Positions 47,805-54,240 of a stretch of 64,000 bases of DNA are shown here, piece by piece. This stretch comes from Limnothrix sp. BL-A-16. GTDB lineage: Bacteria > Cyanobacteriota > Cyanobacteriia > CACIAM-69d. The DNA lies in contig CP166615.1 of assembly GCA_041937175.2 (NCBI GenBank), forward strand, positions 480,001-544,000, in the 5' to 3' direction. The position numbers and the translations under genes were made by a program. Below the pieces are notes generated by a model, which saw only the letters and a program-made list of their open reading frames with translations, had not been told where the DNA came from and did not search any database. Numbering within the stretch: the stretch's first letter is position 1; each line of letters begins with the position of its first letter.

Positions 47805-49712
47805 ATGAATCGATCGACGATCGTGCCCGCATTGGCCGCTGCTGCCTTTACCCTGCTGTCCTCCGTTGCGGCTTGGGTGGTGGATGATATCGCCCGTGAT
47901 CGATTCGTTGGAGAAGCCCGATCCAGCCTCTTGGCCCGCCTGAGCGCCAAGCGGGCCCGGCTGGAATCGGCCCTGAACGCTCGCATTCAAACGGCCCAAG
48001 GGATTATTCCCTACGAGCTGAATGCGGGGCCCCTGTCCCAAGGCCAGTTCAGCGCCTTTGTGCGATCGCTCATGCAGCAGCAACAGGGGGTGATTGCGGT
48101 GTTGTTGGTGCGATCGGCCCAGCCCGGTCAACCGCCGCCTCTGAACGATCCCCAAGCACTGCAAATCTTGGCCTATCCACCAAACACGGAAACCCAAGCC
48201 GTTTTGGATGACTACCGCCAACAACAACAGCGGTTTAAACGTCTGATTCCCAGTGGTCTTATTTCCCGACTGCCCCAGCCCTACACCAACCGGGCACGCT
48301 ACTTGGGCTACATCCCCGTTTGCGACGGGCGCTGCTCCAGTCGATCGCCCCTGCTGGGCATGGTGGTTGTGATCTTTGATGAGCTGGCCCTGCTGGCGGA
48401 TGCGGACTTGCTCAACAACGACAACAGCACGGAATACGCCATCTATGAGCATGGGGCCAATGGGGTGGGACGGTTGCTGTTTGGGTCGGCCACGGTGTTC
48501 GATCGCGATCCGGTGATTCTGGAAATTCCGTTGCTTACGGGGCGCTGGCAACTGGCCGCCGTGCCCACCCAAGGTTGGACAGTGGTGTCCACTTCCATGC
48601 TCTGGTTGCGGGTGGGCGAAGTGGTGGCGATCGTCCTGGGCACGGTGTTGACCTTCCTGCTGGTGCGCCAACCGATGCGGCTGCGGGTGGCGATCGCCCA
48701 AACCCGCGAAACCAACCGCCTGCTGCGAGAAGAAATTCTCGATCGACAACTGGCCGAAGCCAAATTGCAAAGCCTGGCGGAACAACTGGAGCAACGGGTG
48801 TTGGAGCGCACCGCCGAACTGTCCAAAGCCCTAGAACAGGTGCAAAAAGCGCAGGTGCAGGTTGTTCAGTCCGAAAAAATGTCCAGCCTGGGGCAGTTGG
48901 TGGCCGGCGTGGCCCACGAAATCAATAACCCGATCAACTTCATCTACGGCAATTTGGGCCATGCAAAGGAGTATATCCACGGCCTGTTGGGTTTTTTAGA
49001 GCTATTGCACCAGGAGCAGCCGGAACTGTCCCCCACCTTAGCGGCCTATGCCGAGGCGATCGACCTGGAATTTCTGGAGGACGACTTGCCACAACTCCTG
49101 AAATCCATGGAAATTGGTTCCGAGCGCATTTGCGGCATCGTGCAATCGTTGCGGATTTTTTCCCGATTGGATGAATCGGATCTGAAGCGGGTGGACATCC
49201 ACGAGGGCATTGACAGCACCCTGACAATCTTGAACCATCGCTTGAAAGGCAGCGAAACCCAACCGGCCATCATCATCCACCGCGACTACGATCCGGCCAT
49301 GCCTTCGGTGGAATGCTATGCGGGTCAGCTCAACCAGGTGTTTATGAACCTGTTGGTGAACGCGATCGATGCCTTGGAAGAGTTTGGCACGTTGGATCCA
49401 CAGATTACGATCGTCACGACCCTGCTGGATCCCAATCAGCTTCAAATCCGAATTACCGACAACGGCCCAGGCATTGCCACGGCGGCCCAATCCAAGATTT
49501 TTGATGCTTTTTTCACAACGAAGCCGGTGGGCAAAGGAACGGGGATGGGGCTGTCCATCTCCTATCAGGTGGTGGCCGATCGGCACAAGGGATCGCTGGA
49601 ATGCGTGACAGAGCCGGGCCAGGGAGCCACGTTTGTAATCACCATCCCGATCGAGCAACGGCCCGTCCCTGCGGCCTCTGCGGCAATTGACCCGGTCTCC
49701 TTAACAACCTAG
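47805..49712 (+). CDS. Membrane sensor histidine kinase (CHASE-like input)
   Basis: Two transmembrane helices; AHEINNP H-box, NLLVNAIDA, DNGPG, TTKPVGKGTGMGL. Confidence 0.92.
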   Translation: MNRSTIVPALAAAAFTLLSSVAAWVVDDIARDRFVGEARSSLLARLSAKRARLESALNARIQTAQGIIPYELNAGPLSQGQFSAFVRSLMQQQQGVIAVLLVRSAQPGQPPPLNDPQALQILAYPPNTETQAVLDDYRQQQQRFKRLIPSGLISRLPQPYTNRARYLGYIPVCDGRCSSRSPLLGMVVVIFDELALLADADLLNNDNSTEYAIYEHGANGVGRLLFGSATVFDRDPVILEIPLLTGRWQLAAVPTQGWTVVSTSMLWLRVGEVVAIVLGTVLTFLLVRQPMRLRVAIAQTRETNRLLREEILDRQLAEAKLQSLAEQLEQRVLERTAELSKALEQVQKAQVQVVQSEKMSSLGQLVAGVAHEINNPINFIYGNLGHAKEYIHGLLGFLELLHQEQPELSPTLAAYAEAIDLEFLEDDLPQLLKSMEIGSERICGIVQSLRIFSRLDESDLKRVDIHEGIDSTLTILNHRLKGSETQPAIIIHRDYDPAMPSVECYAGQLNQVFMNLLVNAIDALEEFGTLDPQITIVTTLLDPNQLQIRITDNGPGIATAAQSKIFDAFFTTKPVGKGTGMGLSISYQVVADRHKGSLECVTEPGQGATFVITIPIEQRPVPAASAAIDPVSLTT

Positions 49713-50188
49713 GGCCGATCGCAAAACTCATCAAAACGCAAGAAAAGACTCCCCAGTCCAGAACCCTGAAAGCTAGGATCGAATCGTCAGGAATCTTTTC
49801 TTGGGCCGAAGCAAGTCTGATGGGCTGATTGCTGATGATGATCAGCACCGGGCTTGCGCAATCAGGGTTGGTGCATCGCCTGGGTTAAATCACGGTTCAT
49901 GGATGAGTTGGCGATCGGCGATTGGTGATTAAGATGGGCGACTCATGATTAGCCACCCGCGATCGGCGATTCATCACCCGGGATCAGTCAATTTGGTGAC
50001 TGAGGCAACGTTCTTGGCCAATGGGCGAACGCGGGCCGGGTTTCCACAGCAGCGCCCCTTGCCCCAGCATGTTGATCAGTCCTGTTGGTTCCATTGATTC
50101 AGTTGATTCGGTCTTGGCCGTCCTTAACCCAGTCTTTCAAAACCGTTTATTTGTCGGGGATGTTTCGGAGAGTTAGGGTTAATCAACA

Positions 50189-52441
50189 ATGTCAGAATCC
50201 AGTACCCCTTCAGCAACCACCCTCAGAATCCTTGAGGCGGGCCAATCCATTCTGCCGATCGAAGTGCAACCCCCTGCGGACTTAGACAGCACCACGGCCG
50301 ATGCTGCCGCCACGGACTCCGCCATGGATTCCGCCATTGATCAGAATTCCCCCATTGAGCGCCTGTTATCGACTGCCAGCGAAACGATGGTGGATGTTGT
50401 GACCCATAGCCAAGTGTTGCTTGCGGTGGTGCAGCCGGACAGCTTTGAAGTGGACATGGCCAATGCGGCGTTTTGTCAGGCGGTGAAGCTGGCCGGTCGC
50501 CAGGAGTCGGTGCGTGGTTTGGTGGCCGTTGGCCGATCGCTCGCGGATTTGTTGCCGGGATTAGAAACCGAAGTCTTGCGCGATTGGCTGCGACGACAGG
50601 TGGCCTACCGCCTGTTGCTCGATCGCCACCCCAAGGACAGCCGAATTCGGCGGCTGTTGAATGCGCCGAAGTTGGTGCAAGTGGCCGATCGCTGGTTGGA
50701 ATTGTGGATGCGGCCGGGGGCCTTGGTGTTTGAGTCGATCGCCCCCGATGTGCAAACCCTGATGGAAGCCTCCACTTCCTTACCCTCCTTTGAAAGCGCG
50801 TTCCAGTTGGAATGGTGCCAATTTAAGGGGCAACTGTTGTTGGAAGGGTGGGATGTGACCGCGCGGGAGCAACTACGCCGGTTGGGTCGCCTGTTGCTGA
50901 ATGGCCATTCCATCCTGCAGCCGGAGAAGTTCCGGGAGGTGGGGCAATCCATGCGATCGCTCTTTTCCGGCGATGCCACCTTTGTGTTGCGCACCGATGG
51001 CGATCGGCTGCAATTAACCCTGGGGAATGAGGCGCGGCTACGCACCGTCCGGGGCTACGACCTGGGAGATTTGCGCGAGTCGCCCTGTTTAGCGGCCATG
51101 CAGTTGGAGCGGGTGACGATCGTTCGGGATTTGGCCACCCAGGCCGTCACCCCCCTAGAGCAGGATTTGCGCGATCGCGGGGCCCGATCGCTGTTGTTGA
51201 TTCCCCTGTTGCTGCGAGATAAGGCGGGCGATCGGCCACCCCTATTGATGGGGTTAGTGGGGGTGGCCAGTCGCCTGCCTGATAACTTTGACCTGCTGGA
51301 CATCAATCGAGCGGAACTGCTGCAACCTTCTTTAGCTGTGGCCCTGCGCCAGGCCGGCCAGTCCCACTTCAGCAACATTCACCCGGCCGTGGAATGGAAA
51401 TTTTTGCAGGAGGCAGAGCGGCGGAGTTGGGGCCTGCCACCCCAGCCGATCGCCTTTGAGAATGTTTATCCGCTCTATGGCATCTCCGACATTCGCGGTT
51501 CATCCCTCGCGCGCGATCGGGCCATTCAAACGGATTTGCTGTCCCAGTTTCGCCAAGCCCTGGCCATTCTGGACTGTGCTTGCGCGGCCAAAGATCTGCC
51601 CCTGTTGCGGCAACTGCGCTTGGACTTGCAGGAATATATCCACAACCTTGAAGGCGGCGTGACCGTGGAAGCGGAAGTGCGCGGGGCCCAATACCTGCGG
51701 GAAAACATTGAAGACGACTTGGACTATCTGGCAGGGCTAGATCCGGCCACCGCCGCCGCCGTCACCGCCTATCGCCAAGCTTGCGACAATCCCCATGGAG
51801 CCGTCTACGAAGCCCGCGCTGAATATGACCATTTGGTGAGTGAAATTAATCGTCGGATGCGGGAAACCTGGGATCGCTGCCAAAGCAAAATGCAGTCGAT
51901 CGCCCCCCACTACTGCGACATTGAATCCACCGACGGCATTGATCACATGATCTATGCCGGTGGCTCCATCTATCCCGACTTCACCAGCTTTCACCTCCGC
52001 AGCCTGCGGTACGAGCAACTGCGAGCCGTCTGTGCCTGTGCGCGGATGGGCTTTGAAATTGAGCGCACCCTCAGCGACCAATTACGCCTGACCCATCTCG
52101 TGTTAGTTCAGGGTTCTACGGTGGATATTCTGCATGATGAAAACACCGAAAAGCTCTTTGATGTGCGAGGAACCCGCGACACGCGCTATGAAATTGTCAA
52201 AAAGCGGATCGACAAGGCCCGCGACGCGATCACAGGGGAACGAATTACCCAGCCCGGCTGCCTCACGGTGGTTTATGCCACGGAGGATGAGGGCCACGAA
52301 TATCAAGAATATTTGCGCTACTTGGAACGCGAGGGCATGATTGGTTCCAAGCGCGAGAGCGGCGAGGTGGAATCGCTCCAGGGAGCCAATGGGTTGCGGT
52401 TTATCCGGGTGGCTGTGTTGCCGCCAGAACCCGATCGCTAA
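50189..52441 (+). CDS. GAF-domain protein with a putative divergent class III nucleotidyl-cyclase-like C-terminal domain
   Basis: PAS-like N-terminus; GAF (GARSLLLIPLL...GLVGVAS...F); C-terminal motifs SDIRGSS, STDG, FDVRG, QPG. The CDS call is solid; the cyclase call is inference. Confidence 0.8.
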   Translation: MSESSTPSATTLRILEAGQSILPIEVQPPADLDSTTADAAATDSAMDSAIDQNSPIERLLSTASETMVDVVTHSQVLLAVVQPDSFEVDMANAAFCQAVKLAGRQESVRGLVAVGRSLADLLPGLETEVLRDWLRRQVAYRLLLDRHPKDSRIRRLLNAPKLVQVADRWLELWMRPGALVFESIAPDVQTLMEASTSLPSFESAFQLEWCQFKGQLLLEGWDVTAREQLRRLGRLLLNGHSILQPEKFREVGQSMRSLFSGDATFVLRTDGDRLQLTLGNEARLRTVRGYDLGDLRESPCLAAMQLERVTIVRDLATQAVTPLEQDLRDRGARSLLLIPLLLRDKAGDRPPLLMGLVGVASRLPDNFDLLDINRAELLQPSLAVALRQAGQSHFSNIHPAVEWKFLQEAERRSWGLPPQPIAFENVYPLYGISDIRGSSLARDRAIQTDLLSQFRQALAILDCACAAKDLPLLRQLRLDLQEYIHNLEGGVTVEAEVRGAQYLRENIEDDLDYLAGLDPATAAAVTAYRQACDNPHGAVYEARAEYDHLVSEINRRMRETWDRCQSKMQSIAPHYCDIESTDGIDHMIYAGGSIYPDFTSFHLRSLRYEQLRAVCACARMGFEIERTLSDQLRLTHLVLVQGSTVDILHDENTEKLFDVRGTRDTRYEIVKKRIDKARDAITGERITQPGCLTVVYATEDEGHEYQEYLRYLEREGMIGSKRESGEVESLQGANGLRFIRVAVLPPEPDR

Positions 52442-52719
52442 CTTCAGGTCGATCGCCCTGGTGATAACACGGCGATTAATGACGTGGTGATTGATTCAGA
52501 ACGGTTGAGGATTGGCCCGGTGGATTATTAGTCGGGATTGCTGCTTGAGATCGCTCGTTGGGATCACTGGGCGATCGAACCGTTCGTAACCGGTGTAATT
52601 GTCCGGAATCGCGGGCTGCTTTGAGGATGGCCAGGGATAGGAAGTGGGCCCCGCAACCCAACTGTTGGGAAGCAGCCCCCCGATCGCTGTTGATTACTGT
52701 GGGGACGAAATAGGCGACT

Positions 52720-54240
52720 ATGCAAAGTTGGACAGAGGGCTATGTGGCCGAAGTGGACTACACCCATGGGTTTTATCGGGAACTGGCCCCCACACACCTG
52801 AATTATGTGTTGTTGTGCAAGGGGCTTCAGGCTCCCCCGCTCGATCGCGCCTTCACCTACTGCGAATTGGGCTGTGGGCAGGGCAATACAACCAATTTGC
52901 TAGCGGCCGCCAATCCACAAGGGGATTTTTATGCCACGGATTTTAATCCCAGCCACATTGTTCATGCCCAAACCTTAGCCCGCGAAATTGGCCTCAAAAA
53001 CATCCATTTTTTTGATGACTCTTTCCAGGATTTTGCCGATCGGGCAGAGTTGCCGGACTTTGATTTCATCACGCTCCATGGCGTTTTCTCTTGGATTTCG
53101 CCCGAAAATCGGCAGCAAATCATTAACTTTATTCGCAAAAAGCTAAAAGTCGGTGGCGTTGTTTATCTCAGCTACAACGCAATGCCCGGTTGGTCTGCCT
53201 TTTTGGGAATGCGAGAGCTAATTCAAGCGCAGGTGCTCTCCCAATCGGGCCAAATTACCAAACGATTTGATCAGGCTTTGAACTTTGCCAAAACCATTGC
53301 TGAACAGGAGGCCATTTATTTCAAATCTCAGCCAGCGGCGCTCGATCGGCTCCAGCAAATTTCCACCATGTCTCGTAACTACTTGGTGCATGAATATTGC
53401 AATCGCCACTTCACCCCGCTGTTCCATCGAGAAGTGGTGGAACTGCTGGATGAAGCCAAGGCCAGCTTTTTGGTTTCGGCCCACTTGGGCGACCAAATGG
53501 AACACTTTCGATTGCAGCCCAACCAGTTGCAAACCCTGCAAACCATTGAGGATCCCGTGCTGCGGGAAACCTTGCGGGATGTGTATACCAACCAATCATT
53601 TCGACGGGATATTTTTGGGCGCGGAACCGTGCCCCTTGCCTCTTTGGCCCAGCGCGATCGCTTGGATCAGCAAACCTTCGCCCTTACGCTGCGATCGCCC
53701 CAAATCCCCAAGGAATATCCCTGCCCGGTGGCAACGGTGCATCTGGATGCGGAACCCTTCAAAACCATCATTGCTGGCTTGAGCGATCGCCCCCACACCA
53801 TGGCCGAGCTAGCTCAACAATTACCCAAACTGGCCTGGCGCGACCTGCATCTTTCCTTGGCGATCGCAGTGGATGGGGGGTGGGCGATGCCCGTGGTTCC
53901 CCAAGCTGCCGTCAAAGCGACCCGCGAAACCTGTCATCGGTTCAACCGGGCCATTGCTCGGCGTGCTCTCACGGAAAACAAAATTCAACTTTTGGCTGCA
54001 CCGCTGGTTGGCAGTGGCATTGCGGTTGATCAAACCATTCTGTTGTTTTTAGAGTCCATTTGGCGCAAAACACCGGGCCCCGAATTAGCCTTTGAAACCT
54101 ACAAACGGATGGGGCTAAAGCTTCAGAAAAACGGCGAAACCGTTGAGAGCGATGCAGAAAATTTGCAGCTTCTGAAAACTTCTTGGGAGCAATTTCAATC
54201 CCAAACTGGCCCCTGGCTAAAATCCCTCCAAATTTTGTAG
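52720..54240 (+). CDS. Class I SAM methyltransferase with methyltransferase regulatory domain
   Basis: WTEGYVAEVDYTHGFYREL, ELGCGQG, ITLHGVFSWIS, SYNAMPGW, YLVHEY, NQSFRRDIF. Confidence 0.88.
   Translation: MQSWTEGYVAEVDYTHGFYRELAPTHLNYVLLCKGLQAPPLDRAFTYCELGCGQGNTTNLLAAANPQGDFYATDFNPSHIVHAQTLAREIGLKNIHFFDDSFQDFADRAELPDFDFITLHGVFSWISPENRQQIINFIRKKLKVGGVVYLSYNAMPGWSAFLGMRELIQAQVLSQSGQITKRFDQALNFAKTIAEQEAIYFKSQPAALDRLQQISTMSRNYLVHEYCNRHFTPLFHREVVELLDEAKASFLVSAHLGDQMEHFRLQPNQLQTLQTIEDPVLRETLRDVYTNQSFRRDIFGRGTVPLASLAQRDRLDQQTFALTLRSPQIPKEYPCPVATVHLDAEPFKTIIAGLSDRPHTMAELAQQLPKLAWRDLHLSLAIAVDGGWAMPVVPQAAVKATRETCHRFNRAIARRALTENKIQLLAAPLVGSGIAVDQTILLFLESIWRKTPGPELAFETYKRMGLKLQKNGETVESDAENLQLLKTSWEQFQSQTGPWLKSLQIL

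Follow-up and report, generated by a model that had tools for sequence, protein, structure and literature searches.

The window analysed here is a stretch of 64,000 nucleotides (nt) from the genome of Limnothrix sp. BL-A-16 (contig CP166615.1, positions 480,001 to 544,000 of the forward strand). It contains an open frame at 50189..52441 on the forward strand, which encodes a protein of 750 amino acids (aa) followed by a stop. The N-terminal part of this protein carries sensor domains, and the C-terminal half is predicted to adopt the palm fold of class III nucleotidyl cyclases with one helical module inserted into it. Since this predicted cyclase-type fold escapes sequence searches, the protein is probably a member of a family of nucleotide-signalling enzymes under sensor control that has not been described before. 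The gene is single-copy: the family profile matches full-length once in the 4.56-Mb genome, and the five other matches cover GAF positions only.

Gene product and order of domains

The features of the gene are listed below, with the evidence for each in brackets; all lie on the forward strand.

50189..52441, +: whole gene, 750 aa plus stop
50189..50368, +: tail at the N-terminus, aa 1-60, predicted to be disordered and showing little conservation (predicted local distance difference test, pLDDT, <50)
50408..50848, +: PAS-like alpha/beta sensor domain, ~aa 74-220, with approximate limits and not searched on its own (strand/helix pattern of the model)
50852..51373, +: GAF domain, ~aa 222-395 (model of residues 1-400)
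51293..51427, +: continuous signalling helix from the GAF domain to the catalytic fold, ~aa 369-413 (helices 369-394 and 399-413 of two models)
51380-51403, +: near-invariant motif HPxVEWxF, aa 398-405 (conservation among 253 sequences)
51446..52423, +: predicted palm domain of class III cyclase-homology type, inserted helical module included, ~aa 420-745 (model and structure searches)
51485..51505, +: end of strand beta1 and alpha1 N-cap, S-D434-I-R-G-S-S, counterpart of (F)ADIVGFT; candidate first metal Asp plus phosphate-binding turn (conservation; low-confidence hhalign)
51527..51811, +: extra helical module between alpha1 and alpha2, ~aa 447-541, with approximate limits (model helices)
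51905..51961, +: beta2-beta3 hairpin, P-H-Y-C-D-I-E-S-T-D582-G583-I-D585-H-M-I-Y-A-G, counterpart of KIKTIGDAYM; candidate second metal site (strands 186-190 and 194-201 of the C-terminal model)
52157..52219, +: beta6 and helix alpha4, F-D658-V-R-G661-T-R-D-T-R666-Y-E-I-V-K671-K-R673-I-D-K-A, counterpart of YDLWGDTVNxASRMES (strand 269-271 and helix 274-287 of the model)
52376..52408, +: last beta hairpin, L-Q-G-A-N-G-L-R-F-I-R740, counterpart of the canonical IKGKG hairpin (strands 329-338 and 348-354 of the model)

Four parts can be told apart in the model of residues 1-400 (pLDDT 83.8): residues 1-60 form the disordered tail, ~74-220 an alpha/beta domain, ~222-395 a GAF domain and 369-394 a terminal helix. 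The VIA structure search places phytochrome PAS-GAF bidomains (6tby, 5akp, 4q0j) in the rows covering model residues 74-394. In Pfam, GAF matches aa 248-385 below the threshold (E 0.0076, 17.2 bits against a cut-off of 22.4), and the domain is recognised at the level of fold/profile. The PAS-like plus GAF sensor region proposed by an earlier reading of the DNA letters (the sequence-only reading) is thereby borne out.

The sensor region is connected to the output half by a helix, as the terminal helix 369-394 of the N-terminal model runs on into the aa 399-413 helix (10-24) of the C-terminal model. The motif HPxVEWxF lies at this junction and is strongly conserved (H398 in 247, W403 in 250 and F405 in 253 of 253 sequences). 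The VIA alignments to 6fht, to the soluble and receptor guanylyl cyclases (sGC, GC-A) and to AC9 begin at model residues 1-8 and thus take in the linker or cyclase transducer element helix. An excerpt of the 6fht paper (PMC5995499) describes the cyclase transducer element as a conserved element N-terminal to the core that regulates dimeric class III cyclases. In the models, the signalling helix of the present protein appears to sit where the linker or transducer element of real class III cyclases does.

The C-terminal half was described by the sequence-only reading as resembling a class III cyclase, on the basis of nine motif strings. All of them were found in the product and in collinear order: NIHPAV (aa 396-401, first nt 51374, as had been given), FENVYPLYGISDIRGSS (aa 423-439), LVSEINRRMRETWD (aa 549-562), HYCDIESTDGIDHMIYAG (aa 574-591), LRLTHLV (aa 632-638), FDVRG (aa 657-661), KKRIDKA (aa 671-677), QPGCLTVV (aa 688-695) and GEVESLQG (aa 725-732). 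The class III consensus used for that comparison agrees with five genuine cyclase domains of the genome (consensus A2: ...VTVLFADIVGFT...ELVxxLNxIFSxFD...HGLEKIKTIGDAYM...IRIGIH...YDLWGDTVNxASRMES...PGRIQVT...IKGKG). The exception is NILPxxV, a class III motif that lies upstream of the extracted stretch. The canonical YDLWGDTVNxASRMES is the region of the substrate Asp and the transition-state Asn/Arg.

Predicted fold and conservation of the catalytic face

The structure of residues 390-750 was predicted from an alignment with 79 full-length homologues of 32-84% identity (A1). The C-terminal model has a mean pLDDT of 95.1 and a predicted template modelling score of 0.90, and 324 of its 361 residues reach at least 90. 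Every row listed by Foldseek against the PDB is a class III cyclase, the best being the guanylyl cyclase Cya2 (2w01_B, E 1.6e-4, probability 1.00). The VIA search aligned 185 of the 199 residues of Cya2, including the beta4-beta5 arm and the C-terminal hairpin. Strand by strand and helix by helix, the model follows the canonical topology one to one, with a single insertion. The absence of a palm fold would have spoken against the sequence-only proposal; the model was inspected for it, and the cyclase-homology palm fold is present with both its arm hairpin and its C-terminal hairpin. At the level of the fold, the claim is confidently predicted and about as firm as prediction allows. The cyclase resemblance is counted as real because of the predicted structure and the structure searches, and not because of the sequence.

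The inserted module consists of helices 49-78, 82-99, 104-117, 119-126 and 130-142 of the C-terminal model, which upholds the earlier claim of a helical insertion of ~100 aa; the collinear motif map is borne out as well. The spacing of the two Asp motifs that flank the module was compared in 190 sequences that show each of the four motif patterns, and it amounts to 148 residues in 180 of them; in a genuine cyclase domain of the genome it is 44 (D13 to D57). Because this spacing is constant, the module of ~104 residues is a fixed part of the family and not a variable loop. Near-invariant residues are linked to it as well, namely E496, Y528 and R543 (251, 250 and 246 of 253). A module of invariant length with such residues would be part of the catalytic unit rather than a decoration.

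Conservation was counted in an alignment of the C-terminal part of the query with 252 homologues of at least 600 aa, from which 20 shorter proteins and two copies of the query were excluded. D434 and D582 are each Asp in 252 of 253 sequences; a lack of conservation at these Asp residues had been named beforehand as evidence against a cyclase. Neither this nor a missing palm fold was observed, and the sequence-only interpretation is supported. D585 is acidic in 241 (D in 174, E in 67), and D449, Q569, G583, Y589 and G591 are found in all 253. The turn between beta1 and alpha1 keeps R436 (229, with K in a further 15), S438 (252), S439 (245, with T in 6) and R442 (251). The beta6/alpha4 element keeps D658 (190, with E in 22), G661 (250), R666 (250), K671 (253), K672 (247), R673 (252), D675 (246) and K676 (251). 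R685 is present in 252 sequences, and the last hairpin retains G732 (242), G735 (250), L736 (251) and R740 (250). Leaving D434, D582 and D585 aside, almost every position that reaches 90% conservation falls into one of four places: the end of beta1 with the alpha1 N-cap, the beta2-beta3 hairpin, beta6/alpha4 and the last hairpin. According to the secondary-structure register, these would be the elements that build the class III active site. The C-terminal half shares 55-70% identity across cyanobacterial families and 34-39% with other phyla; the N-terminal 400 residues share only 13-37% beyond the closest relative.

The low-confidence local pairings of hhalign are collinear with the earlier motif map and suggest how the metal sites may correspond. 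The segment sDIR.SS is paired with aDIvgFT, so that D434 falls on the first canonical metal Asp, which would be retained as had been proposed. At the second site, T581-D-G583 is paired with the T-I-G of KTIGD (T581 with T, G583 with G). The canonical second Asp then corresponds to I584, with D582 and D585 on either side; the sequence-only reading had described the acidic residues as shifted.

The positions beside the presumed base pocket differ between two groups of homologues. The 252 homologues were split by overall identity to the query into 119 of cyanobacterial type (at least 50%) and 133 others (below 50%).

aa 578: cyanobacterial-type I/V/L; other K or R in 106
aa 579: cyanobacterial-type E in 112; other Y/H/Q/F
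aa 580 (canonical substrate Lys column): cyanobacterial-type A/S/C/T; other K or R in 87
aa 660: cyanobacterial-type R in 108; other D or E in 122
aa 663: cyanobacterial-type R; other Y
aa 664: cyanobacterial-type D in 119; other N in 122

These differences (window 51920-51943 and 52166-52180, aa 578-585 and 660-664) are systematic and partly charge-swapped. They count as one event, since they correspond to a single split on the tree, and could stem from a compensated salt bridge or, alternatively, from altered specificity. The canonical Asp column at aa 658 is D in 190 of 253 sequences.

Distribution of the family and genomic context

The search of 90% clusters with the C-terminal half gave 1000 proteins at E<=0.001 among 7999 scored candidates. 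The best 120 of these are 60-100% identical to the query and are named only "GAF domain-containing protein" or "hypothetical protein". Among 50%-identity clusters, 921 representatives were obtained, 515 of them at E<=1e-30. In species-representative genomes, a relative is encoded in 579 of 601 pattern-matched stretches, and the family thus occurs in no fewer than 579 such genomes from several phyla. From these genomes 80 loci were kept for the comparison of titles and neighbourhoods; their titles include Cyanobacteriota, Bacteroidota, Ignavibacteriota, Gemmatimonadota, Rhodothermota, Poribacteria, Rokubacteria, Spirochaetales and Entotheonella.

Homologues of different length were also found. 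Those of 402-494 aa retain pieces of GAF and resemble truncated gene calls, and those of 398-410 aa begin inside the linker helix. An example of the latter are P0298 and P0317 (398-403 aa, on contigs of 180 kb and 22 kb), with a Met start in the linker helix just before HPxVEWRF. Such proteins, some of which bear the Pfam accession PF27174.1, may be stand-alone proteins of helix plus cyclase fold, or split genes. A search for fused forms of 1314-3750 aa found none, which is weak evidence.

The description of the family as undescribed holds in part. No paper on it was found in the open full-text literature, a coverage that leaves subscription journals aside. The family is not unregistered everywhere, as the precomputed Pfam accession PF27174.1 stands on 5 of 120 listed short non-cyanobacterial homologues, each 36-43% identical to the query. 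The protein atlas assigns PF27174, under the name 'YeeD', to 23-33% of the proteins in the nearest clusters, the only named look-alikes. It stands on none of the 120 listed cyanobacterial proteins. Judging from the presence of this accession on the short homologues and the atlas clusters, the domain seems to have a recent Pfam entry.

In the cyanobacterial sample, the gene is present in 21 of 301 genomes and 12 of 134 genera. The pattern is patchy by family, with 11 of 14 genomes in one coded family and 0 of 35 and 0 of 18 in two large ones. A FastTree phylogeny covers the query and 74 loci, each with its last 380 residues; the six loci whose open reading frame (ORF) was shorter than 650 aa were excluded. 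The 41 rows of Cyanobacteriota lie to one side of a branch (support 100, length 1.26), and so do the 19 rows of Bacteroidota, with support 97 for their branch. Because the tree groups by phylum, descent appears to follow the phyla, with much loss inside the cyanobacteria.

The neighbours of the gene in the window encode a methyltransferase, shikimate dehydrogenase (aroE), a histidine kinase, a second methyltransferase with a regulatory domain, a DUF4230 protein and NAD-dependent DNA ligase (ligA). The histidine kinase lies directly upstream (47805-49712, +), with HisKA and HATPase_c in its C-terminal 275 residues and an N-terminal part of ~350 residues without a Pfam match; its adjacency is not conserved in related loci. 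The second methyltransferase (52720-54240, +, 506 aa, PF10119 'predicted methyltransferase regulatory domain') begins 279 nt downstream on the same strand. A divergent ffh (SRP54) gene stands upstream in 17 of 48 cyanobacterial loci, which looks like plain synteny, and is absent from this window. The Limnothrix genome also carries a very large cyclic-nucleotide signalling repertoire of 19 canonical class III domains besides the hidden one, all above the PF00211 cut-off and in open frames of 345-1350 aa.

Outside the cyanobacteria, a gene of ~400 aa follows the homologue directly in 10 of 32 loci, which are 10 of the 11 Flavobacteriales by record title. It is convergent in 8 loci and co-directional in 2. 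The two members scanned consist of an HD domain and a C-terminal PycTM module (PF18967 E 7e-36; PADLOC PycTM and CBASS 2TM-effector models E 1e-12 to 1e-17), and the remaining eight were assigned by BLAST clustering only.

L062:7159-8358, +: HD(IG)-PycTM/2TM-effector gene, Flavobacteriales
L064:7742-8953, -: HD(IG)-PycTM/2TM-effector gene, Flavobacteriales
L066, L073, L077, L078, L081, L082, L086, L087: further loci with an HD(IG)-PycTM/2TM-effector gene, Flavobacteriales

The other neighbours vary in these ten loci; a metallophosphoesterase of ~1225-1260 aa is next in four. In a single case, an uncultured Cytophagaceae, a histidine kinase of cNMP_binding plus HATPase_c lies directly downstream on the same strand (L069:7216-8616, +).

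Contigs that match the gene occur in RNA libraries. A single contig of 2462 nt in a freshwater metatranscriptome library, which comes from a relative and has 112 differences, spans 50000-52462 and so takes in the gene together with ~190 nt before it and 21 nt after it. Eight short contigs come from a second library, and five of these are at least 99% identical to the window; a soil library holds one of 1166 nt. Since DNA may also be present in RNA libraries, these contigs are no more than consistent with a monocistronic transcript. Rfam detected no element in the spacer of 476 nt upstream of the gene (only a chance match to a small nucleolar RNA, E 0.25), and the promoter/terminator scan gave nothing above shuffles. 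The spacer contains, at 49890-49990, two similar copies of a GCGATCGGCGATT...-type element with HIP1-like GCGATCG cores. The long contig of the X4 library that covers the gene starts at 50000, right after these HIP1-like elements.

Proposed function and its alternatives

The preferred reading is that the C-terminal domain is an active two-metal nucleotidyl-transfer enzyme regulated through the helix by the sensors, and its probability is estimated at about 0.55. What the analysis establishes is the open frame, its fold as predicted, the arrangement of its domains, the pattern of conservation and how widely the family occurs; metal binding, substrate, catalysis, dimerisation and regulation by the sensors are all putative. 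In the proposed mechanism, the protein would be a soluble sensor enzyme in which the PAS-like and GAF domains bind a ligand and the signal passes along the continuous helix to the class III-fold domain. There, D434 together with D582 and/or D585 would hold two metal ions that bind a nucleoside triphosphate. Its phosphates would be held by the S438-S439 turn and by an Arg/Lys cluster (R436, R442, R666, K671, K672, R673, R685, R740), and the product would be a nucleotide-derived messenger. This product cannot be named, because the specificity positions are neither the canonical Lys/Asp nor Glu/Cys and differ between the clades.

The reading of an active enzyme is favoured because invariant acidic, basic and Ser residues concentrate on the canonical catalytic face, because the fixed-length module has invariant residues of its own, and because the output half is far more conserved than the sensor half. 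Further points in its favour are the one-to-one topology of the model, the sensor-helix-cyclase layout superposed on the linker or transducer element of 6fht, sGC, GC-A and AC9, and the 27 homologues scanned with Pfam, which carry GAF or nothing and no other output domain. The HD-PycTM and cNMP_binding neighbours in other phyla are hints in the same direction.

Several observations weigh on the other side. The search of the whole genome with PF00211 places none of its 19 cyclase domains at 50189..52441. For hhalign, the family compared with the five genuine domains gives a non-significant probability of 0.4%. Compared with all nineteen, it reaches 1.0% for the whole C-terminal half and, when the part without the insertion is divided, 3.1% for the first 80 and 0.4% for the last 211 residues. 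The family profile finds only GAF chains and no cyclase chain among the PDB sequences at E<=10, and the PADLOC PycC models do not match the protein. In the presumed active site, the second Asp lies outside the canonical column. The canonical substrate Lys column (aa 580) holds S here and A/S/C/T in the cyanobacterial clade, with K/R in 87 of the 133 other members, and the substrate-specifying pair (Lys/Asp for ATP, Glu/Cys for GTP) was not found in the low-confidence register. Despite the invariant R666, K671, K672 and R673, alpha4 has no conserved Asn/Arg pair at the canonical spacing. The sequence-only reading had already called the substrate-specifying and N/R positions non-canonical. The residue equivalences are tentative, coming from low-confidence profile alignments and the secondary-structure register, and all structural points are predictions. 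Among the clustered ORFs of the 80 loci, no neighbour gene is common to several phyla, and PF18967 (PycTM) has no match in the 100%-complete Limnothrix genome.

That the C-terminal half is unrelated to cyclases would agree with the sequence comparisons, every one of which is non-significant: PF00211 has no match to the protein at E<=10, searches of NCBIfam, the PDB sequences and PADLOC with the single protein matched nothing, and hhalign stays at 0.4-3%. For this reason the cyclase resemblance is not above chance by sequence, and the motif similarity taken alone is not statistically significant. A mere coincidence is nevertheless scarcely credible, as it is contradicted by the model: two independent structure searches put class III cyclases first, with more than 90% of the cyclase domain aligned. 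An active enzyme with another chemistry on the palm fold, either a GGDEF- or Cas10-like synthesis of oligo- or dinucleotides or nucleotidyl transfer to a non-nucleotide acceptor, is improbable. In the VIA search Cas10 lies ~4 Z units below the class III cyclases, and the cyclase arm and C-terminal hairpin are matched. GGDEF has no Pfam hit in the protein and no chain among the 50 rows shown in either VIA search, where a lower-ranked match is possible.

A pseudo-cyclase, in which the fold is kept as an output or binding module for a protein partner or a nucleotide and forms no product, is a serious but clearly less probable alternative than an active enzyme. Its precedent is AdvA, the cyclase-like division protein of Acinetobacter baumannii (PDB 7SUA), reported to lack catalytic sites, dimerisation sites and the arm. 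Unlike AdvA as described, the present family has an acidic residue on or next to each of the two metal positions in 252 of 253 sequences, invariant Arg, Lys and Ser residues are numerous on the catalytic face, and the arm region is matched. Conservation of this degree (60% identity across cyanobacterial families and the fixed 148-residue spacing) is what active sites typically show. A role as the cyclase of a Pycsar-like pair for anti-phage defence, to which the PycTM modules of the Flavobacteriales neighbours would point, is very improbable here. PADLOC finds neither PycC nor any other defence model in the protein, the complete genome has no PycTM gene, and the neighbours are housekeeping genes (aroE, histidine kinase, methyltransferases, ligA). 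The gene tree follows the phyla (Cyanobacteriota clade 100, Bacteroidota clade 97), and in 8 of the 10 Flavobacteriales loci the genes converge and form no operon.

Among known systems, the closest are the sensor-linked class III cyclases: CyaB1/CyaB2 (GAF-regulated; tandem GAF structure 1ykd), Cya2 (2w01), CyaC (1wc1) and the phytochrome-cyclase fusion 6fht. The present family differs from them by the lack of a PF00211 match, the fixed module of ~104 residues between alpha1 and alpha2, a second Asp displaced by one to two positions, the absence of a Lys/Asp or Glu/Cys pair and of the canonical Asn...Arg in alpha4, and many additional invariant charged residues. In contrast to the Pycsar pyrimidine cyclases PycC (8jsz, 8jsf, 7r65), it has no PADLOC PycC match and no effector partner in the genome, and the gene is chromosomal, single-copy, congruent with the phyla and equipped with sensor domains. 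The Bacteroidota branch of the same family has the same architecture and shares 34-39% identity over the C-terminal domain. The cyanobacterial branch forms a separate clade on a long branch (1.26), lacks the HD-PycTM neighbour or gene and has a different pocket, with I/V-E-small instead of K/R-aromatic-K/R at aa 578-580, R instead of D/E at 660 and R-D instead of Y-N at 663-664.

What is new is a class III-type domain that PF00211 fails to detect and that contains an inserted module of fixed length and a rewired pocket. A bolder extension of the active-enzyme reading, which is put forward only tentatively, is that the family may form a new class of class III-derived enzymes. Its fixed module and rewired pocket would then yield a messenger other than cyclic AMP (cAMP) or cyclic GMP (cGMP), with cyanobacterial and Bacteroidota specificities differing through positions 578-580, 660 and 663-664. 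Through these clade-specific changes at the presumed base pocket, specificity can be put directly to the test. Class III cyclases are the principal source of cAMP and cGMP, and PF00211, with which surveys of bacterial signalling count these enzymes, is a profile that this family escapes. If the family is active, the second-messenger inventories for filamentous cyanobacteria and for Bacteroidota have a gap, and either a new product or a new mode of regulation may emerge.

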